Below, piece by piece: positions 1,761 to 39,304 of a DNA stretch of 40,000 nucleotides. Origin of the DNA: Marinobacter sediminum (lineage in GTDB: Bacteria; Pseudomonadota; Gammaproteobacteria; Pseudomonadales; Oleiphilaceae); NCBI RefSeq assembly GCF_016820575.1, contig NZ_JAEMQH010000002.1, positions 1,326,933 to 1,366,932 of the forward strand. The letters run 5' to 3'. How positions within the stretch are numbered: position 1 is the first letter of the stretch; every line of letters starts with the position of its first letter. Under the pieces are notes generated by a model that was given only the letters and a program-made list of their open reading frames with translations, did not search any database and had not been told where the DNA came from. A program made the translations under genes and the position numbers.

Positions 1761-2108
1761 TCAGACCAACTTTTCCAAGTATTCCTTCAAGATATGGGCG
1801 TGACTGTGTTTCTTGTCTTTCGCCCCATACAGCAGAATGAGGTTCTTCCGGCTCACTTCTTCAAGGCGCTCTTTGGCGTCTTTTTTATGATCGCTCAGTT
1901 CACTCAAATACTCCTTTCTAAAGTCGCCCCATTTGTCTGGATCATGATCAAACCACTTCCGTAGATCATTGCTGGGCGCCAACTCTTTCCAGTGACCATC
2001 AAGATCAGCCTCAGCTTTGGATATACCACGAGGCCACAAGCGATCCACAAGAGCATGATATCCCTGCGGCAGATCATCATCATAAATGCGATAAATTCTG
2101 ATGTTCAT
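1761..2108 (-). CDS. DUF488 (YeaO-like) family protein
   Basis: MNIRIYRIYD...YHALVDRLWPRGISKAEADLDGHWKELAPSNDLRKWFDHDPDKWGDFRKEY matches the DUF488 pattern. The ATG at 2108 is preceded by GGAGG. Confidence 0.8.
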   Translation of the reverse strand: MNIRIYRIYDDDLPQGYHALVDRLWPRGISKAEADLDGHWKELAPSNDLRKWFDHDPDKWGDFRKEYLSELSDHKKDAKERLEEVSRKNLILLYGAKDKKHSHAHILKEYLEKLV

Positions 2109-2256
2109 TGCGCCTCCGTTCCCTTGCTTCACTCGTCAGAAAATACCCTACAAACTAACGCTGCTGACGCACGCCTGACAAGGTCGTTCAGTGGAGGGTC
2201 ACAATTGTCTATGGGGCTGAATCCCCTGGGAAAAGCGACTTGAACAAGACAACCGG

Positions 2257-3015
2257 TTGAAAAAAACAACCTCGGGTCTAATGTTAGGCCCGCAGGTAAT
2301 GAGATTTTTCACTAATCAAAGGGTGCTTCATTTCATAATGATTGAGCAGATACAGTCAACAATTGACAGCTGGACTCTATTGGCGGGCTGGCTTCTATTA
2401 GTTGTCGCCAGCGTGGCTTGGATGATCCATGACCTCAGAACCAACAACAGCCATATCCCCTCTATCATGCAATGGGTATGGATACTCACAGGCTTCTATT
2501 CTGGACCGATCGGCTTATTAATCTATCGGTATTCCGGGCGTAAACAGATAGCCACCGACAGCCTTTCACGCAAAAGTTTTCGTTCTGTGGCGCATTGTTA
2601 CTCCGGTTGCGGAATCGGTGAGATTCTGGGAGTTCTGATTTCCGTCGGGCTATTTGCGCTGGGAAACTTTTGGGCCGCTGTCGTCACCTTTTCACTGGCC
2701 TATATTTTCGGTTTTGCCCTGAACATCGGGCCAATGATGCAAAATGGCATGGCGTTCAGAGAAGCCTTTAAGGGAGCCTTCCTAGCTGAAACAATCAGCA
2801 TCGTGGTCATGGAGTCTGTTGCGATCACCACGGACCTTTATTTAGGTGGCCAAGCCACCATGAGCGATGCCCTGTTTTGGAGCTCTCTTTATGTTTCCCT
2901 GTCTCTGGGCCTGTTCGCTGCCTGGCCCGCTAATCTCTTATTGATTAGATATGGCTTGAAAGGTGGCATGGGGGACCCCCGTGATGAACACGGTCAACAC
3001 GCCCACTGTCACTGA
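2257..3015 (+). CDS. DUF4396-like integral membrane protein (start uncertain)
   Basis: A polytopic membrane protein with HCYSGCGIGEILG and METV-like motifs as in DUF4396. The track start is TTG 2257; in-frame ATGs at 2281, 2299 and 2338 are alternatives. Confidence 0.6.
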   Translation: MKKTTSGLMLGPQVMRFFTNQRVLHFIMIEQIQSTIDSWTLLAGWLLLVVASVAWMIHDLRTNNSHIPSIMQWVWILTGFYSGPIGLLIYRYSGRKQIATDSLSRKSFRSVAHCYSGCGIGEILGVLISVGLFALGNFWAAVVTFSLAYIFGFALNIGPMMQNGMAFREAFKGAFLAETISIVVMESVAITTDLYLGGQATMSDALFWSSLYVSLSLGLFAAWPANLLLIRYGLKGGMGDPRDEHGQHAHCH

Positions 3016-3120
3016 GCGCCCTACTTGAACACGAGGTTGATGAGATTGGCCAGAAAACCGGCGGACACCTTATGCGTTTCTGCAAGAGCGCCGCTGGCTG
3101 GCCTGTTAGCCGGGTTGGCA

Positions 3121-3408
3121 CTAGTAAGGAGATGGCTCTATCCGTTCAATTAGATAGTCCTTCAACTGAAAGTCGTCACTAAGTATGACCTGAATAGCAT
3201 CCCCACCTAGTTCCATCTCTTTAGGTCCAATATAAATCTCGTAGCCATCCTCCAGCTCAGTGATGGTGACAACACTATATCTGATATCAATTTTTTCGCT
3301 GACCAGTCCATTGGGCAAACTATAAATCCATTCAATTGAATCCAAATGCTGCCTGAAATCATAAAGCTCTGTGTCCAATTTTTTGTCCTTATTGTTTATG
3401 GCTAACAT
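3121..3408 (-). CDS. hypothetical small acidic protein (low-GC ORF)
   Basis: A 95 aa ORF with clearly lower GC than its neighbours. I recognise no family. Confidence 0.4.
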   Translation of the reverse strand: MLAINNKDKKLDTELYDFRQHLDSIEWIYSLPNGLVSEKIDIRYSVVTITELEDGYEIYIGPKEMELGGDAIQVILSDDFQLKDYLIERIEPSPY

Positions 3409-3810
3409 TCAAGTTAACTGATAGCAGGACAACAAAGAAGGGACGAAGCGGTTGTTTGTTCAACCAGGTCGAGACGAGTGCGACTGGATTACAGGCAGTG
3501 CCCAACGCAGAGGGCAAGAGCAAGTATGTTGATAACGGTGAGCTTACCAATGAATAGATGAATGAGTTCAAAGGCAACGGCGCAGACCCCATTCAACCAG
3601 AGCACAACCCTACTTCCACCTCTCTATGCTGATCTGTCAAACGGTTAAAAGCGCTGACAGCAAGGCTGTGCAACGGATCGCATAAGGCGGGCAATCGGAG
3701 AATGGCGATAAACTGGCGGAGTTGTTCGGGAGGTATAGGGCGGACTGGTTCGACCCTGAGCCGAAACCAGTCCTGGCCTGTGCTTCTAGCGAATACTGCC
3801 AGTGCGGCTA

Positions 3811-10661: not shown

Positions 10662-10794
10662 GCTCTGTAGTGGAGGTTACCCGAGACTAACTTCCCGTTC
10701 TCATCTATTTAATCACCTGGACACCCCAAGAAGGATGAAATCGCGATGCGGGTCTGAGCAGTAAACATCGCCGTAACTGGCCTGGTTAGGCGCA

Positions 10795-11196
10795 TTACAC
10801 CTGCCCTCTCAGCTTAGCAGCGATGTATGGTGCAAGAACCGTTGCCGCAAGAACAACGGGCCAGATGTTGCCACCCTTGAATGTGTACGCTTCAAGCAAC
10901 TCGGACCACGACTTGCCTTGCCAAAGCCCGAACGAAAACTCAAAAACGAGAGTAAGAACGAGCCAGCCCACCCCGACGACACAGAACCCAACGGGGCGAC
11001 TAATTTGCAGCCAAGGAAGCGAAAAATACGCTACGCCAATGATTGAGGCTGAGAGCAGCAAACCACTTAGCACGAGCGCGACCGGAATTCCGAACTCTGG
11101 CACAAATACCGATTCACGCAACACTCCATTGGCAACAGCTAGGACCAGGATGCCAACCCAGATTGCTAAAGCCTTTAAAGCGACTACCGTCAGCAT
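10795..11196 (-). CDS. small integral membrane protein, possibly the terminal integron cassette
   Basis: 133 aa with four hydrophobic segments. The ATG at 11196 is preceded by GGAGG and begins 17 nt after the attC at 11213..11284. Confidence 0.5.
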   Translation of the reverse strand: MLTVVALKALAIWVGILVLAVANGVLRESVFVPEFGIPVALVLSGLLLSASIIGVAYFSLPWLQISRPVGFCVVGVGWLVLTLVFEFSFGLWQGKSWSELLEAYTFKGGNIWPVVLAATVLAPYIAAKLRGQV

Positions 11197-11212
11197 TGAC
11201 TGCCTCCATAGC

Positions 11213-11284
11213 GCCTAATGCCGTGGGTAAGCCGCCGGGCCAAGGCGCAGCTTAGCACCGGTCGGCTGGACCCACTTGTTAAGT
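11213..11284 (-). repeat. attC site 0 (core mutated: ATTAGGC instead of GTTAGGC)
   Basis: Minus-strand reading: CTTAACAAGTGGGTCCAGCCGACCGG...CCGGCGGCTTACCCACGGCATTAGGC. The arms GTGGGT.AGCCG.CGG and CCGG.CGGCT..ACCCAC are complementary. The R' GTT is replaced by ATT. Confidence 0.6.
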
Positions 11285-11406
11285 TCAATCAGTAAAGAAT
11301 TCGCCACCAGAATCTCCCAAACCAACCCGACTATCGGCACCGCCACTCATACCACTGATCAAACTGTTTAGGTGCCTGGCAAATCGATCTTTGGCCGCCA
11401 GCTCTC

Positions 11407-12147
11407 CTACTTGTCCGGCTGAATCGAGATGTGCCGGTCCGGCGGCGGCAATTCGGATAGCATGGCCTCCACGTCAACCTTGTGGGTAGCGAAAAAAGCT
11501 TCCGCAGCCTCAATCAGAACCGATTCGGTTTTGAGGATACCAAGATAGACCGGCCATTCGGCATCGATCAGCGGCGTGCTGTAACGGTCCGAATCGACTT
11601 CCGCCAACAATGCAAAAAATTGGAACTCCATTTCGTTCATGACAATGTAATCGCACCGTTTGCGCAGAAACATGCCCAGCATCTGTTGGGCATTGTACGC
11701 GTCATGGCGGACCAGATCCGTGCCGATCCGCCGCTCGAGTCGATCACTGTAGACAAACCATCGGCGCAGACAGATGCTGCCCTTTAGGCCATCGAAGGAG
11801 TCCGGTTGACGTTCAGGTTGCGCGAACACGCGGTCACGCCAGGTTAATACCGGTCCGACGGCGTGCATCCGATCCGGCAGCGGCATCCACCGCGGGTTGG
11901 CGAAAACCGCGTTAGCTAGTCCTTGTTCCAAGGCCCAGGCATGGCGTTTGCGCGCCATTGGGCGGAAATCGGCTTCGATATCGGTCTTGATGGTGAACTC
12001 ATTGATCACCTCGACCAGAATGCCCTTATTAAGGTTGTTACCGTAATAAAACGGCACAAAGCCCTGGTCCGACCCCATAATCTGAAGCGTTTGGGACGAG
12101 ACTGGAAGGACCCAGAATGCTGCGATGATCAGCAGGCCTATTCTCAT
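11407..12147 (-). CDS. periplasmic solute-binding protein family 3-like protein (orphan), inside a composite cassette
   Basis: 246 aa with a signal peptide (MRIGLLIIAAFWVLPVSS) and an SBP-like body. It is a distant analogue of the 4843..5616 product and has no transporter partners. Confidence 0.5.
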   Translation of the reverse strand: MRIGLLIIAAFWVLPVSSQTLQIMGSDQGFVPFYYGNNLNKGILVEVINEFTIKTDIEADFRPMARKRHAWALEQGLANAVFANPRWMPLPDRMHAVGPVLTWRDRVFAQPERQPDSFDGLKGSICLRRWFVYSDRLERRIGTDLVRHDAYNAQQMLGMFLRKRCDYIVMNEMEFQFFALLAEVDSDRYSTPLIDAEWPVYLGILKTESVLIEAAEAFFATHKVDVEAMLSELPPPDRHISIQPDK

Positions 12148-12357
12148 TGGATCATCCCCCCAGTGATCGATCGGGATAGGTCGTCGCTTGTTCGAGGTTG
12201 CCTCGGCCAGCTAAAGACAACCTGCACACGACTTTGTGCAAACCGTTTAAGGAATAGTTCCGTTGTGCCATATCACTCTGCAGTCCAATGCCTGCTGTAG
12301 TGCGTCGCAGCACATCCCCCAATAATCACAAAGTTGCATGCGTAAATTGCGGAGATG

Positions 12358-12507
12358 TAGCTTGCACCCAGCCTAGCCTATGGCGAAAGAAACCAGAAAA
12401 CAAAACTAAAAGATTTTGCAGTGTCTTGCGGGGAGAAACGTTGAACTGACGCGATCAATTGAGAGCAACTCCCTGCTCTAATGCCTGAATTCTTCCGAGG
12501 CCTTGGC
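12358..12507 (-). repeat. ORF-less cassette family, copy 1 (distal ~55 nt and its own attC missing)
   Basis: By hand alignment it matches 16226..16375 and 20104..20253 at about 84% identity. The homology stops abruptly at 12358. Confidence 0.8.
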
Positions 12508-12579
12508 CATTAACGCCTTGGCTTTGCGGCGTGACGGAGCGCCAGCGTAAGCACGCCCGACAACAGCCATAGGTTAAAT
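12508..12579 (-). repeat. attC site 1 (family D; belongs to the ccdAB cassette)
   Basis: CATTAACGCCTTGGCTTTGCGGCGTGACGGAGCGCCAGCGTAAGCACGCCCGACAACAGCCATAGGTTAAAT. It is about 85% identical to the attC at 15393..15464. Confidence 0.85.
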
Positions 12580-12581
12580 GC

Positions 12582-12610
12582 TTGCATGCGCATGGCTATG
12601 CGCATAAGAT
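12582..12610 (+). promoter_or_regulatory. putative ccdAB promoter with tandem ATGCGCAT palindromes (operator candidate)
   Basis: -35 TTGCAT (12582..12587), a 17 nt spacer, and -10 TAAGAT (12605..12610). Two copies of the self-complementary octamer ATGCGCAT sit at 12586..12593 and 12598..12605. Confidence 0.5.
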
Positions 12611-12645
12611 CAAACTTTGTATTCGATATCTTCTGGGAGGCCCTC

Positions 12646-12891
12646 ATGGCCGAACTCTATAACTCAGCCGCCCCCAAAAAAGCAGCGAATCTCTCAATCA
12701 ATAGCGATCTTCTGCGTAAAACTCGGGAACTGAACATTAACTTGTCTGCCACCCTGGAACGAGCCCTGAAAGAAGAGCTTTCGAAACGCGAAGCCGCACA
12801 ATGGGTTGAAGATAATCGCGCTGCGATAAAAAGCTACAACGATTTCGTCGAACAACATGGATGCTTCGGCGACGAATTCCGGGAGTTCTGA
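12646..12891 (+). CDS. ccdA: type II antitoxin CcdA
   Basis: MAELYNSAAPKKAANLSINSDLLRKTRELNINLSATLERALKEELSKREAAQWVEDNRAAIKSYNDFVEQHGCFGDEFREF is the CcdA family pattern. GGGAGG SD. The TGA overlaps the ccdB ATG by 1 nt. Confidence 0.85.
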   Translation: MAELYNSAAPKKAANLSINSDLLRKTRELNINLSATLERALKEELSKREAAQWVEDNRAAIKSYNDFVEQHGCFGDEFREF

Positions 12892-13208
12892 TGGCACAGT
12901 TCGATGTGTACCCCAACCCGAGCAAAATCAGCAAGGCTCACTATCCTTACCTTGTGGATATTCAAAGCAGCCTTCTGAGCGATTTGGCAACTCGCATTGT
13001 TATCCCTTTGGGCAAACGTTCTGCCTTCGGTGGCGAAGCCATGCAAGGCCTCACTCCCGAAATCAGTTTTGCCGATCAAGAGCTGTTGCTGTTAACTCCG
13101 CAAATTTCCTCCGTGCCTGAAAAACATCTCAAGAGCCCTATTGGCTCTCTCTCACATTTCAGAGACCAGATTGTTGGAGCTCTGGACCTCGCTATCACCG
13201 GCATTTAA
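12891..13208 (+). CDS. ccdB: type II toxin CcdB (gyrase poison family)
   Basis: MAQFDVYPNPSKISKAHYPYLVDIQSSLLSDLATRIVIPL... is the CcdB family pattern. The stop codon TAA lies inside the attC core at 13206..13208. The cassette is inverted relative to the array. Confidence 0.85.
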   Translation: MAQFDVYPNPSKISKAHYPYLVDIQSSLLSDLATRIVIPLGKRSAFGGEAMQGLTPEISFADQELLLLTPQISSVPEKHLKSPIGSLSHFRDQIVGALDLAITGI

Positions 13209-15392: not shown

Positions 15393-15464
15393 GCCTAACG
15401 CCCTGGCTTTGCGGCGTGCCGGAGCGCCAGCGCAGGCGCGTCCGACAACAGCCACTGGTTAAGC
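15393..15464 (-). repeat. attC site 5 (family D; higBA-2 cassette)
   Basis: CTAACGCCCTGGCTTTGCGGCGTGCCGGAGCGCCAGCGCAGGCGCGTCCGACAACAGCCACTGGTTAAGC. Confidence 0.85.
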
Positions 15465-15752
15465 TGCTTCGAAGTCCAGGCGATGAATACCATCCAGATT
15501 GACTGTGCCGCGAGCCACCCATAGGTCATACATATCTTGCATCGCCAACCAGCTCTCAGGAGTACGCCCGAGAACCTTGGACAGCCGCAAAGACATTTCA
15601 GGGCTAATGCCACTATCCCCTTTGAGCAGCCGAGACAAAGTAGAAGGTGAAACGCCCAGACTGGAAGCAAGCTGACGAGAGCTGATACCAAAAGGCTCCA
15701 GGTACACCTCGCGAATGAATTCACCAGGATGCGGCGGATTATGCATAGTCAT
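15459..15752 (-). CDS. higA: HigA-family antitoxin (XRE HTH)
   Basis: [70 protein letters not shown]. The stop lies in the attC core. Confidence 0.9.
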
Positions 15753-16030
15753 TAGTGATAATCCTCATAATCAAGAATGTAGGCGTTGCCGTCCTGGAAT
15801 TCGAACGTCATGCGCCAATTTCCGTTAACCCTAATCGACCACCGGCCTTTGTCTTTGCCCTTCAGTGGATGAAGCCGAAAACCAGGGATATCCATGTCTT
15901 CCACTGAAGTCGCCGTATCCAGAGCAGCCAGCTGCATGCGCAGCTTCTTGGCGTGATCTGGCTGTATGCCGGACGTGCTGCCAGTCGAGTAGAACCGTTT
16001 CAGTCCTTTGTGACGGAATGATTTAATCAT
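15752..16030 (-). CDS. higB: HigB-family toxin (RelE/ParE superfamily)
   Basis: [40 protein letters not shown]...[40 protein letters not shown] is the canonical HigB pattern. Confidence 0.9.
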
Positions 16031-16069: not shown

Positions 16070-16170
16070 GCTTAACGCTGAGCTTAGCGGCGGCCTTGTA
16101 ATGGAGGCGAAGCCGCAATGAAAAGGCCGTCCGGCGGCCATCGGCCGCGTACTACAGCGGCTTGTTAATG
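16070..16170 (-). repeat. attC site 6 (family A, 101 bp; belongs to ORF-less cassette copy 2)
   Basis: TTAACGCTGAGCTTAGCGGCGGCCTTGTAATGGAGGCGAAGCCGCAATGAAAAGGCCGTCCGGCGGCCATCGGCCGCGTACTACAGCGGCTTGTTAATG is near-identical to 19948..20048. Confidence 0.85.
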
Positions 16171-16375
16171 GCCGGTTACCCGGCAGTTTCTCCCTGGCAC
16201 CCAAACCCGAATGCCCTTTACCAAATAGCTTGCACTGACCCTAGCCCATGGCGCGAGGAACCAGAACACGAAACTCGCAGATTTTGCAGTGTTTTGCGGG
16301 GAGAAGAGTTGAACGGACGTGAACATTTGAAAGCAACTCCCTGCTCTACTGCCTGAATCCTTCAGTGGCCTTGGC
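16171..16375 (-). repeat. ORF-less cassette family, copy 2 (complete)
   Basis: The whole interval between two attC sites. It is about 92% identical to 20049..20253 by hand alignment (about 16 substitutions, no indels). No reading frame is conserved between the copies. Confidence 0.85.
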
Positions 16376-16476
16376 CATTAACGCTGAGCACAGCGGCGAC
16401 CTTGGAGTGGCGACGAAGGAGCCACGTAAAGGGCGTCCGGCGGCCATCGGCCGCGTACTGCTGCGACTTGTTAAAG
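16376..16476 (-). repeat. attC site 7 (family A)
   Basis: TTAACGCTGAGCACAGCGGCGACCTTGGAGTGGCGACGAAGGAGCCACGTAAAGGGCGTCCGGCGGCCATCGGCCGCGTACTGCTGCGACTTGTTAAAG. Confidence 0.85.
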
Positions 16477-19285: not shown

Positions 19286-19363
19286 TCATAACTCCCGGCT
19301 CACGCGCCGGTTTAGAGCCGCGAAGCGGCGGAAAAACGGTCGCTGTGCAGCCGCTTGTTAAAG
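19286..19363 (-). repeat. attC site 13 (family B; parE-like TA cassette)
   Basis: ATAACTCCCGGCTCACGCGCCGGTTTAGAGCCGCGAAGCGGCGGAAAAACGGTCGCTGTGCAGCCGCTTGTTAAAG. Confidence 0.85.
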
Positions 19364-19651
19364 CCTGCCAAGCCAGTACTGCGGACGTCGCCGGTCGTGG
19401 GCAACCGCCAGAACTTGAAAACCGTCAGGTTTCTCTCGGTAAACGATGGATAGCGGAAATCTGTGAGGGGGCGCTCTACGAATATCTGGCTGCAACTCAA
19501 CTTGCCAGGCTTTTGGTGACTCGCCAACTAAATTGGCCAGGGCCTCAAATTCCTCTATGAAGGCACCACCCAATCCCGGAACTTTTGATTCGTAATAACC
19601 AACTGACTCCAGGAACTCGGCTTCCGCTGCCGGGTGAAAAGAATAGTTCAT
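19358..19651 (-). CDS. RelE/ParE-family type II toxin
   Basis: MNYSFHPAAEAEFLESVGYYESKVPGLGGAFIEEFEALANLVGESPKAWQV...RFPLSIVYREKPDGFQVLAVAHDRRRPQYW is the ParE/RelE pattern. It overlaps the upstream antitoxin gene by 4 nt. Confidence 0.8.
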   Translation of the reverse strand: MNYSFHPAAEAEFLESVGYYESKVPGLGGAFIEEFEALANLVGESPKAWQVELQPDIRRAPPHRFPLSIVYREKPDGFQVLAVAHDRRRPQYWLGRL

Positions 19652-19872
19652 TTGATCAGTGCTCTAGCCTTCCTCATGACATCTTCACCGGACACGGCCT
19701 GAACTGAACCATTATCTAGCTCTTCGCCTCTACGGCGGGCCTCAAGCAACCAATCGGACCTGAGTTCTTCTTCTGAGGGAGACTCCAGACTCAATACCAG
19801 TCGCTGGATCAATTGGGCTCGCTCCTCTTTGGGAAGGTGGAGCGCCTCGTCTTCAATTTTCTGGAGATTCAT
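19648..19872 (-). CDS. putative addiction-module antitoxin (small helical component)
   Basis: 74 aa. EDEALHLPKEERAQLIQRLVLSLESPSEEELRSDWLLEARRRGEELDNGSVQAVSGEDVMRKAR resembles the addiction-module-component family paired with ParE-like toxins. Confidence 0.7.
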   Translation of the reverse strand: MNLQKIEDEALHLPKEERAQLIQRLVLSLESPSEEELRSDWLLEARRRGEELDNGSVQAVSGEDVMRKARALIK

Positions 19873-19947: not shown

Positions 19948-20048
19948 CTTTAACGCTGAGCTTAGCGGCGACCTTGTAATGGAGGCGAAGCCGAAATGAA
20001 AAGGGCGTCCGGCGGCCATCGGCCGCGTACTACAGTGGCTTGTTAATG
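19948..20048 (-). repeat. attC site 14 (family A, 101 bp; belongs to ORF-less cassette copy 3)
   Basis: Differs from 16070..16170 at only a few positions. Confidence 0.85.
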
Positions 20049-20253
20049 GCCGGTTACCCGGCGGTTCGTTCCTGGCACCCGAACCCGAATGCCCTTTACC
20101 AAACAGCTTGCACTGACCCTAGCCCATGACGCGAGGAACCAGAACACGAAACTCTCGGATTTTGCAGTGTTTTGCGGGGAGAAGGGTTGAACTTACGTGA
20201 TAATTTGAAAGCAACTCCCTGCTCTACTGCCTGAATCCTTCCGTGGCCTTGGC
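20049..20253 (-). repeat. ORF-less cassette family, copy 3 (complete)
   Basis: See 16171..16375. It occupies the entire space between two attC sites. Confidence 0.85.
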
Positions 20254-20337
20254 CATTAACGCTGCAATAAACGGCGCACTGAAAAGGGCGTCCGGTGGAG
20301 GCCGTAGGCCGGAACGTATTTAATTGCCTTGTTATAC
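20254..20337 (-). repeat. attC site 15 (family C)
   Basis: TTAACGCTGCAATAAACGGCGCACTGAAAAGGGCGTCCGGTGGAGGCCGTAGGCCGGAACGTATTTAATTGCCTTGTTATAC. Confidence 0.85.
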
Positions 20338-20343
20338 ATAAGG

Positions 20344-20616
20344 CTACCAGCCCCACCAACGTTCAATCCTGACAATGCCACGCCAGATGCCCCCGAGAAT
20401 AGATGGAAACAGTTGCGGGAGCAGCAATGCCAGCACAGCAAAGACGATGATACAGGCGACCAGATAGGTACTGCTGAGAAAGCCGCCCCAAAACGAGAGC
20501 TCTTTATTAACCCCAGGCCAGATGAAGGCTGCGGTCGGGACCGAAAAAAACAGAGATGCAAAGAGACTTATCAACCTTGACTCGATTGGCCCACCTTGGC
20601 CACGCTTCCTTGCCAT
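20344..20616 (-). CDS. hypothetical small membrane cassette protein
   Basis: 90 aa with a basic N-terminus followed by two or three hydrophobic helices. AAGGAG lies 12 nt upstream of the ATG. Confidence 0.55.
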   Translation of the reverse strand: MARKRGQGGPIESRLISLFASLFFSVPTAAFIWPGVNKELSFWGGFLSSTYLVACIIVFAVLALLLPQLFPSILGGIWRGIVRIERWWGW

Positions 20617-22183: not shown

Positions 22184-22212
22184 TTGAATTCAGTCTTAAA
22201 ATACTGTATATA
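22184..22212 (+). promoter_or_regulatory. putative intI promoter
   Basis: -35 TTGAAT (22184..22189), a 17 nt spacer, and -10 TATATA (22207..22212). Confidence 0.55.
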
Positions 22213-22221
22213 AGAACAGTA
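22202..22221. promoter_or_regulatory. LexA (SOS) box overlapping the intI -10
   Basis: TACTGTATATAAGAACAGTA matches the gammaproteobacterial consensus TACTG-N10-CAGTA (CTGT-N8-ACAG). Confidence 0.85.
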
Positions 22222-22235
22222 TGGAGGCTGTGCGC

Positions 22236-23228
22236 ATGATTTTGGATGTACCACCAAAACTGCCGGATAACCCTACCCGCTTCATGGATCAGCTTCGGGT
22301 GCTTATCCGCAGCCGGAATATGGCCTACAAAACCGAACAAACTTACTGTCATTGGATCAGGCGCTTCATCCGCTTTCATGGCATGAAGCATCCGTCCACC
22401 TGTTCCGCAGAAGACGTAGAGAAGTTTTTGTCCCACCTTGCGGTACAGCGTAATAACAGTGTGAGTACCCAGCGCACGGCTTTGAACGCCATTGTTTTCC
22501 TGTTTCGGGAATTCCTTCAGCAGCCGCTGGAGGAGCTGTCGTTTGAGATGGCGCGCAAGCCTCGGCGGTTACCTACGGTGTTCACTCACGATGAAGCCCG
22601 GGCGGTGATTGGTCACCTGCACGGTGAAGCCCAGCTAGTCGCCCGGCTGATGTACGGTGCGGGGCTTCGAATCAACGAGGCCTTGAGGTTGCGGGTAAAA
22701 GACGTGGATTTCGGAATGCAGCAAATCATCGTTCGCAGCGGCAAAGGCAACAAAGACAGAACCACCCTGCTCCCAGACTCACTGATTGAACCACTGACGT
22801 TGCAGATGGAAAGCTGTCTGGCCCAGCACAGGAAAGATCTTGCTCAAGGTCTCGGTGAGGTCTATATGCCCACGGCTTTAGATCGAAAATACCCCAGCGC
22901 AGGTCGGGAACCGGCATGGCAGTATGTGTTTCCCGCCACAAAATTATCCAAGGATCCGCGTAGTGATGTGCTCCGCCGGCACCACCTGCTGGATCGAAGT
23001 GTCCAGCGAGCCATTGGTGCCGCCATCAGCGAAGCGGGCGTTTACAAGCAGGCGAACAGCCACGCGTTGCGGCACAGCTTTGCTACTCGTCTGCTTGAGG
23101 CCGGTTATGACATCCGCACCATTCAGAAACTGCTGGGTCATGCCGATGTACGTACCACCGAAATCTACACCCACGTGGTGCGCAAAGGTGGCTTTGGCGT
23201 GCGTAGCCCCATCGATGATGCGGTCTAG
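22236..23228 (+). CDS. intI: integron integrase IntI (tyrosine recombinase)
   Basis: YKTEQTYCHWIRRFIRFHG N-domain. Catalytic R (AGLRINEALRLR), HALRHSFATRLLEAGYDIRTIQKLLGH and EIYTHV. It also has the IntI-specific insertion ALDRKYPSAGREPAWQYVFPATKLSKDPRS. The ATG at 22236 lies 8 nt after GGAGG; the track start 22221 lies inside the LexA box. Confidence 0.92.
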   Translation: MILDVPPKLPDNPTRFMDQLRVLIRSRNMAYKTEQTYCHWIRRFIRFHGMKHPSTCSAEDVEKFLSHLAVQRNNSVSTQRTALNAIVFLFREFLQQPLEELSFEMARKPRRLPTVFTHDEARAVIGHLHGEAQLVARLMYGAGLRINEALRLRVKDVDFGMQQIIVRSGKGNKDRTTLLPDSLIEPLTLQMESCLAQHRKDLAQGLGEVYMPTALDRKYPSAGREPAWQYVFPATKLSKDPRSDVLRRHHLLDRSVQRAIGAAISEAGVYKQANSHALRHSFATRLLEAGYDIRTIQKLLGHADVRTTEIYTHVVRKGGFGVRSPIDDAV

Positions 23229-38971: not shown

Positions 38972-39048
38972 TGGCGCGGCTGGGAGGATTCGAACCTCCG
39001 ACCGCCTGGTTCGTAGCCAGGTACTCTATCCAGCTGAGCTACAGCCGC
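38972..39048 (-). tRNA. tRNA-Arg (anticodon ACG)
   Basis: The reverse complement GCGGCTGTAGCTCAGCTGGATAGAGTACCTGGCTACGAACCAGGCGGTCGGAGGTTCGAATCCTCCCAGCCGCGCCA folds as a cloverleaf with anticodon loop CU-ACG-AA. It is close to E. coli tRNA-Arg(ACG). Confidence 0.95.
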
Positions 39049-39075
39049 TTAAAACTGGGCAAGATATTGAAGAAG

Positions 39076-39152
39076 TGGCGCGGCTGGGAGGATTCGAACC
39101 TCCGACCGCCTGGTTCGTAGCCAGGTACTCTATCCAGCTGAGCTACAGCCGC
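39076..39152 (-). tRNA. tRNA-Arg (anticodon ACG), identical tandem copy
   Basis: The same 77 nt sequence as 38972..39048, separated by a 27 nt spacer. Confidence 0.95.
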
Positions 39153-39212
39153 GCATTCATCACTTGCTGTGGTTGAGTGCTACGTCAACCTGCTCTCGTT
39201 TCCAAAAAGGAA

Positions 39213-39304
<92 letters not shown>

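Follow-up and report, generated by a model that had tools for sequence, protein, structure and literature searches.

A lineage-restricted family of ORF-less integron cassettes in Marinobacter and its relatives

We analysed a window of 40,000 nucleotides from Marinobacter sediminum (contig NZ_JAEMQH010000002.1, positions 1,326,933 to 1,366,932), that is, the whole stretch of DNA to which the coordinates below refer. It carries an integron, with a tyrosine recombinase encoded at 22221-23225 on the plus strand (Phage_integrase, 4.7e-37, plus Phage_int_SAM_4, 1e-29, by domain search) and about 17 attC sites between 12511 and 21175, left of the integrase gene. We show that a unit recurring in this array represents a lineage-restricted family of integron cassettes that are non-coding, i.e. 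devoid of a conserved open reading frame (ORF), and that the unit is mobilised like any cassette via its own attC, with several copies per array, often in tandem. We could not find any paper in the literature describing this cassette family.

The cassette unit and its distribution

The presence of an ORF-less interval of about 205 nt three times in one array had been proposed from the window alone, and is borne out: 16171..16375 and 20049..20253 differ by 15 substitutions over 205 nt (92.7% identity) with zero indels, and a third copy (12358..12516), 84-85% identical to both complete ones, stops ~60 nt short of the end of the unit. The attC sites downstream of copies 1 and 2 are near-identical, as also proposed (96% over 100 nt), and the two copies taken as whole 300-nt cassettes are 94% identical. 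The natural unit measures 218 nt, its limits being the TT of the upstream crossover point and the AAC of its own R'' box. It starts with TTAATGGCCAAGG..., the TT following the upstream crossover G, and ends with ...CCGGGTAACCGGCCATTAAC, and its first 9 nt (TTAATGGCC) are complementary to its own R'' flank. Because the array cassette ORFs are in their majority on the minus strand, we take this strand as the cassette orientation. Each complete copy in the window occupies one whole cassette, and the copies lie in an array beside an integrase gene and in the orientation of that array, as integron cassettes do. The copies (assigned to family A, see below) and their attC sites are:

16164..16381, minus strand: unit copy 1 (family A), complete, 218 nt (nhmmer model positions 1-218, E = 8e-75)
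20042..20259, minus strand: unit copy 2 (family A), complete, 218 nt (nhmmer, E = 3e-73)
12355..12513, minus strand: unit copy 3, last cassette of the array, ending at about unit position 159 and without attC; orthologous to a truncated copy in contig L040
16072..16171, minus strand: attC of copy 1, with R'' CATTAAC overlapping the unit end and R' GTTAAGC
19950..20049, minus strand: attC of copy 2, 96% identical to the attC of copy 1

Homologues were sought by one exact-pattern scan of 185,579 species-representative genomes and, with a different conserved block, in metagenome contigs; these being exact-pattern scans only, the sampling is skewed toward close relatives. Among the genomes, the unit is present in a single record, a Marinobacter metagenome-assembled genome (L001), as three consecutive cassettes, two of which are identical. 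At this locus (L001:3732-4538), cassettes 1 and 3 are identical over 218 nt, and the middle copy is 90% identical and has a longer attC, an arrangement that suggests a recent duplication or re-insertion. The metagenome scan returned 42 loci, 38 of which are real and lie on marine contigs. Matches at L014, L019, L030 and L041 were discarded as chance matches of the 21-mer, as were the archaeal matches L002 and L003, which fall inside a protein-coding gene. No match to the unit was found in plasmids (blastn) or in viral contigs (two scans).

A profile search (nhmmer) of all fetched sequences gave 39 copies of full length and 13 partial ones. All of the former start with TTAATGG right after ..GCG, end with ..GGCCAYTAAC and are followed by an attC of 47-88 nt, and therefore have the boundaries of an integron cassette (attC on the flanks, R''/R' boxes and a TT start). 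Their length is confined to 217-219 nt (218 nt in 33, 217 nt in three and 219 nt in two of the 38 that were extracted), tandem copies occur in L001, L035 and L044, and 22 different cassettes lie downstream, all of which supports the original prediction that the unit has been kept as a mobile cassette. Outside the array, L040 is syntenic with the window at ~90% identity, and L016 and L006 at ~80%, indicating that the carrier hosts are relatives of the organism of the window.

Coding potential and nucleotide-level constraint

All six reading frames are interrupted in a sizeable share of copies. The longest one, on the plus strand (MAGYPAV..., 62 aa), is open in about 20 of 31 copies, with two adjacent stops in a diverse clade of seven and a frameshift in three copies, and the minus-strand frame running from R' to R'' contains only the boundary stop, being otherwise open, in 13 of 31. 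Long ORFs were consequently rejected as proteins, their frames being broken by stops and frameshifts across copies. Parsimony steps by codon phase (92/112/90, p = 0.22) reveal no 3-base periodicity, the ratio of nonsynonymous to synonymous polymorphism (pN/pS) ranges from 0.4 to 1.5 across the six frames of the most ORF-like segment, and no protein family was assigned. A search of 5.8 billion proteins, made with the peptide of the longest ORF only, gave one match, which is a copy of the unit in L038. These data agree with the earlier assessment that protein coding is unlikely; the two ORFs on which it had relied do exist and differ in frame (64 aa at 16162..16356 on the plus strand, 87 aa at 20096..20359 on the minus strand). 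As required of non-coding cassettes by Boucher et al. (2006), the unit has no protein-level database match and is conserved over its whole length without a synonymous-site pattern; those authors also set a limit of no ORF >150 bp, and single copies of the unit hold ORFs of 53-64 aa that are broken in ~40% of copies.

Two shorter ORFs were considered as peptides. The first runs opposite to the cassette and is intact in most copies:

16248..16322, plus strand: 24-codon ORF (MARGTRTRNSQILQCFAGRRVERT*)

Its start is kept in 28 of 29 copies, 24 of the 29 have exactly 24 codons, either TGA or TAA serves as the stop, and codon 3 shows an R/K exchange via a two-base change, so that one could imagine a 24-residue basic peptide, MA(R/K)GTRTRN..ILQCFAGRR...*, or the product of another short ORF, as the object of selection. 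We regard this as very improbable. The pN/pS of the 24-codon ORF is 0.86, the second codon position varies most (31/47/28 steps), five disruptive alleles are observed against 5.7 expected, synonymous changes are absent within the invariant blocks, no ribosome-binding site precedes the ATG, and a second cassette family described below has ATT in this position in two copies and is frameshifted in a third. The survival of this ORF follows from conservation at the nucleotide level, and the search for a conserved intact ORF under purifying selection, which the original prediction had named as its own refutation, found none. The second, a 10-codon ORF at the cassette start (MAKASEGFRQ*), was rejected by eye, as it is cut short by stop codons in L017 and L027 and lacks a ribosome-binding site.

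Constraint was assessed on 29 distinct copies and 165 interior columns, leaving aside the attC-tied ends and the 21 bases of the search pattern. With 295 steps spread randomly over these columns, 27.5 invariant ones would be expected, and we observed 63. The index of dispersion of the steps is 2.58, against a largest simulated value of 1.49, and a tree-free runs test agrees (54 runs versus 79.4 +/- 6.0, p < 1e-4; longest invariant run 10 versus 4.9). Indels are rare, with ~5 events versus 309 substitution steps. Interior identity between copies averages only 83.7%, with a minimum of 73%, and some columns have changed up to nine times, which places the free positions near saturation and argues against recent spread as the cause of the conservation.

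The truncated attC-less copies of the window and L040 provide a neutral benchmark. These orthologues are 79.6% identical, a value that lies close to those of the flanking genes in the same two sequences (78.7% at third codon positions, 73.6% at four-fold sites), and by this comparison copies without attC evolve at about the neutral rate. In columns without variation among the 29 intact copies, the two truncated ones have 4 and 5 changes, compared with an average of 0.55 for an intact copy; the conserved blocks are therefore not mutational cold spots. Taken together, these comparisons show that ~40% of the interior positions are, as judged from the alignments, under purifying selection at the nucleotide level, and that the patches between them drift freely. 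The two truncated orthologues (window 12355-12513 and L040:5983-6130) also share a C-to-T change at unit position 124, and the otherwise invariant position 23 is A in the window copy and T in L040.

It could be objected that the family has no function at all, its similarity reflecting recent spread and gene conversion and its blocks mutational cold spots. Recombination between copies does take place, as seen from four-gamete combinations (CGAGAG or ATTAGG with CTCGCG or CTTTCG), and identical copies exist within one array. However, 63 columns never change although the variable patches are saturated, with up to nine steps per column, the truncated copies do mutate in the supposedly cold columns, and the same blocks persist in the far more distant second family, which makes this explanation hardly credible.

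Modular organisation and possible modes of action

The profile search also gave diverged matches that cover only positions ~100-218 of the unit and that define a second ORF-less family, B, of 268-332 nt, with four complete copies and one partial in L018 and L038:

L018:305-573, minus strand: family B copy
L018:1-239, minus strand: family B copy
L018:1873-2000 and 3540-3736, minus strand: family B copy
L038:1823-2090, plus strand: family B copy
L038:7262-7592, plus strand: family B copy

Family B occurs in the same arrays as family A, has up to three GTGTTCT(K)GG-like repeats, and has no consistently open frame (ATG to ATT in two copies, frameshift in another). The blocks common to both families are GTGTTCTGGTTCC, GCGCCATGGG, GGTGCAAG, GGCATTC-loop-GGGTGCC and CCGGGTAACCGG, all located directly before R''. 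From these alignments the unit is shown to be modular, the 112 nt adjoining attC being common to A and B and the other half specific to family A. In L018, an insertion sequence at ~2000-3555 (transposase C-terminus ...RGLEKVAGEWTLATLAWNVKRM..., inverted ends CTGTCAGGTGCAAGTCCGACAGGCTGC) splits one complete family B cassette within the conserved block GGTTCCT|AGC. The main conserved and predicted elements of the unit, given for copy 1, are:

16164..16275, minus strand: attC-proximal module common to families A and B (unit positions 107-218, 112 nt)
16280..16303, minus strand: longest conserved block of the family-A-specific 5' half (CTCCCCGCAAAACACTGCAAAATC); 21 of its bases are the search pattern, so that its invariance is partly ascertainment
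16332..16345, minus strand: invariant block AGCAGGGAGTTGCT, complementary to CTCCCCGC of block 16280..16303; predicted helix without covariation
16196..16215, minus strand: predicted hairpin H1, GGCAUUC-loop-GGGUGCC; stem conserved in A and B, loop variable
16171..16184, minus strand: predicted hairpin H2, GCCGG-GUAA-CCGGC, abutting R''; stem kept with loop variants GUGA, UGC and GCAGCU

In all family A copies, block 16280-16303 (minus strand) contains two GCAAAA repeats exactly 10 nt apart (CCGCAAAACACTGCAAAATC). Such a spacing corresponds to one helical turn and may point to a bend in the DNA or to a site bound by a dimer, although most of the bases concerned belong to the search pattern. 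Several helices sought by eye were rejected: CGAGAG with CTCGCG, where all four patch combinations occur without covariation, and CUGC/GCAG and GAGUUG/CAACUC, which are broken in several copies. In family B, a long-range helix of CGGGGC with GYYCYG was set aside too; it is consistent in five copies and has one informative position only. A group IIC-attC intron or a remnant of one was likewise rejected, as no Rfam family matched in the searches given below (gathering score and E = 10) and the unit has no long ORF.

Since no protein is selected for and no promoter is conserved, we infer that the element acts as a nucleic acid. As the length is fixed and the variable patches are free of indels, the distances between conserved blocks seem to matter, which would fit a folded RNA or a nucleoprotein complex. 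Our tentative preference, held at somewhat less than even confidence, is that the unit functions as an RNA in the sense of the cassette (minus) strand. Array transcripts would include it, and it would act independently, either as a small regulatory RNA or as an RNA domain that binds protein, and not as a dedicated regulator of the following cassette. The cassette strand is favoured because the array is transcribed that way and because of three features of the predicted fold. The consensus folding energies are better on this strand, both for the whole unit (-41.3 versus -36.7 kcal/mol on the opposite strand) and for the shared module (-14.6 versus -5.7 kcal/mol); H1 is better there owing to two U-G pairs, which become C-A mismatches on the opposite strand; and the loop of H2 is of the GNRA type, GUAA or, in one variant, GUGA. 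The weakness of these strand arguments limits our confidence.

A number of results weigh against this RNA reading. The idea of a structured RNA, already part of the original prediction, gained nothing from the Rfam and covariation checks proposed for it. The whole Rfam 15 library, searched at gathering score and at E = 10, gave no meaningful match to the unit (the best has E = 1 and 16.8 bits versus a 50-bit threshold) and only transfer RNAs (tRNAs) in the window. No compensatory change was found in 44 RNAalifold pairs or in a set of 12 pairs, and, both over the whole unit and in the two hairpins that family B also has, the pairing statistics equal those of shuffled controls, at a mean identity of 87% that leaves little power. 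Compared with shuffled sequence, a single copy shows no gain in folding (z = -0.28 on the cassette strand, -0.85 on the other). The unit has neither a promoter nor an intrinsic terminator of its own, so that its transcription would depend on read-through, and the 5' half of family B differs from that of family A and has the opposite G/C bias. The strand argument itself consists of two short hairpins plus energies from structures fitted to the same data, and conserved blocks at fixed spacing fit a DNA-protein complex equally well. In the truncated orthologues, positions 23 and 124 pair in the RNAalifold model, and the change is a compensated G-C to A-U in the window but not in L040, which is too little to count as evidence.

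The main rival to the RNA reading, which we consider rather doubtful, is that of a selfish cassette, i.e. a non-autonomous integron parasite whose 112-nt module acts in cis as DNA to aid its own excision and re-insertion, the host gaining nothing; for instance, the folded attC strand could be stabilised by the hairpin abutting R'', or the integrase or a host factor could recognise the blocks. The number of copies and their occurrence in tandem point in this direction, as do contigs made almost only of ORF-less cassettes (L018), the decay at the neutral rate of copies without attC, and the complementarity between the first 9 nt of the unit and its own R'' flank. Moreover, the module common to A and B is the one touching attC, and H2 is kept directly against R'' with different loops. 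A selfish element is also one of the two options named by Boucher et al. (PMC1382264). On the other hand, the family-A-specific half is constrained as well, up to 180 nt from attC, and we could not find any of the unit motifs in the attI region. Cassette recombination requires the attC site alone, and to our knowledge no accessory flank takes part in it, both of which count against a selfish role.

A further proposal concerns the 112-nt module by itself, which could be a new integron-specific functional nucleic-acid element, folding as RNA or single-stranded DNA and binding the integrase or a host factor so as to tune cassette recombination or the expression of the array, the variable 5' halves serving as exchangeable 'payload' domains. 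We consider this reading of the module unlikely as a whole.

In the original prediction, the unit had been suggested to be a promoter or regulatory cassette supplying transcription signals to the next cassette, notably to promoterless toxin-antitoxin cassettes. In fact, all three copies in the window touch such cassettes (HigB/HTH_3, an addiction-module antitoxin pair and CcdAB), promoter activity is known for ORF-less cassettes of Treponema integrons (PMC6557892), and our consensus scans covered sigma-70 only. The prediction had itself found no convincing sigma-70 promoter in the unit, and both the window scan and a consensus scan of 29 copies are indeed empty: no -35/-10 pair is conserved on either strand, the best being shared by at most 9 of 29 copies and all being weak. 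The unit thus lacks the conserved sigma-70-like pair by which an ORF-less cassette would be recognised as promoter-containing. Matches resembling sigma-54 and extracytoplasmic function (ECF)-type promoters were rejected by eye, as they have the wrong spacing or fall within variable patches, and tandem copies would drive one another instead of a gene. The link to toxin-antitoxin cassettes does not survive the wider sampling, since these are only 3 of the 22 distinct downstream cassettes, the others coding for Sel1, DUF3303, Abi_C, HNH, glyoxalase, PhzF, SeqA and proteins without assigned family. This makes a promoter or regulator role for those neighbours unlikely, and we judge the promoter explanation overall to be improbable.

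Finally, the unit might be a transcription insulator, its C-rich, G-poor untranslated RNA loading Rho, halting read-through from upstream and isolating the downstream cassettes. Positions 51-100 on the cassette strand have 16-18 C versus 4 G per 40 nt, and without a translated ORF the RNA would be free of ribosomes. However, this argument is one of composition alone; the C-rich stretch extends over only ~50 nt and includes hypervariable positions, the 5' half of family B has the opposite bias, and the conserved attC-proximal module would be left unexplained. We find this explanation decidedly improbable.

The array in context and comparison with known cassettes

The genes next to the unit in the array, and the integrase gene, are:

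15459..16030, minus strand: higB-like toxin and HTH_3 antitoxin-like genes (Pfam domains), forming the cassette downstream of copy 1
19358..19872, minus strand: antitoxin (Unstab_antitox) and a 97-aa partner without Pfam match, forming the cassette downstream of copy 2
22221..23228, plus strand: integron integrase gene (Phage_integrase/Phage_int_SAM_4 domain pair), divergent from the array

The two toxin-antitoxin neighbours that had been proposed are therefore present, except that the 'parE-like' label given to the second pair is unconfirmed, its 97-aa member having no Pfam match. A ccdA/ccdB toxin-antitoxin cassette at 12586-13208 (plus strand), inverted relative to the array, adjoins the truncated terminal copy and is also found in L040 at 83% identity. 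Three pairs of attC sites are 88-94% identical despite belonging to different cassettes (16913-16991/20256-20334, 13206-13284/19289-19367 and 12511-12577/15396-15462), the first of which includes the attC immediately upstream of copy 2. Between the end of the array and the flanking genes, a stretch of ~1.6 kb that includes a 246-aa ORF without Pfam match (11407-12147, minus strand) is missing from L040 (window 10686-12366 versus L040:5872-5983), an indel located at the boundary of the array. The integrase start codon at 22221 is directly preceded by a near-perfect LexA-type box (22202-22220, core CTGT-N8-ACAG at 22204-22219; minus-strand sequence ACTGTTCTTATATACAGTA). SOS control of integron integrases is well known, and a LexA-type box upstream of intI fits it. 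Elsewhere in the window, three tRNA genes lie in a row (38975-39304, minus strand), two of them with identical Rfam scores.

Non-coding cassettes have been studied mainly as a class in other hosts. In Vibrio they make up 6-49% of arrays and are often paralogous, their homologues, of >80% identity, being confined to related species (Boucher et al., 2006; PMC1382264). The same authors reported that they seem to be under purifying selection, and proposed either a selfish nature or a role as promoter or RNA (PMC1382264). Our unit resembles them in having no conserved ORF and no protein homologues, in occurring in several copies per array, in having close homologues in related genomes only, and in being conserved over its whole length without a synonymous-site pattern, and differs by its host lineage (its attC sites are of Marinobacter type) and by an unrelated sequence. 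We would thus regard the family as the Marinobacter counterpart of the Vibrio paralogous non-coding cassettes, a known class of which this family is newly described. Beyond the Vibrio work, constraint has here been mapped to blocks and calibrated against a neutral rate, and a module common to two ORF-less families has been delimited.

Two functions have been shown so far for such cassettes, namely promoter activity and a cassette-borne small RNA (PMC8876359, PMC6557892). ORF-less cassettes of Treponema from an oral metagenome contain sigma-70-like promoters active in E. coli (Tansirichaiya et al., 2019; PMC6557892). Like our unit, these have a normal attC, and they are proposed to act on the expression of other cassettes; unlike them, the unit has no conserved sigma-70-like promoter on either strand. 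As described in PMC8876359, which cites Chen et al. (2011), sRNA-Xcc1 of Xanthomonas is a trans-acting small RNA encoded by an integron cassette. Such a regulatory RNA on ORF-less cassettes is the functional model that we deem most likely for the unit, with the difference that the unit has no recognisable promoter or terminator and that its best match in the Rfam library has only E = 1. Lastly, attC sites have themselves surfaced as 'structured RNA' motifs, RNA and single-stranded DNA being indistinguishable by sequence analysis (Weinberg et al., 2017; PMC5737381). By analogy, a conserved integron motif such as ours may act as single-stranded DNA rather than as RNA, although, in contrast to those motifs, the unit sits between two attC sites and its sequence is far more conserved than that of a usual attC.

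Whether non-coding cassettes are selfish, or useful as promoters or RNA, has been asked since at least 2006. The present family represents a compact test case, with a 218-nt unit, ~50 natural variants and a constraint map, to which it adds an internal neutral control in the form of attC-less truncated orthologues and a second family that isolates the 112-nt module. If this module had no effect on recombination or expression, the family would be a clear-cut case of an integron parasite; if it did have such an effect, our reading of cassette arrays would change. Were the module indeed a functional element, non-coding cassettes would not be junk but would form a regulatory layer of chromosomal integrons.

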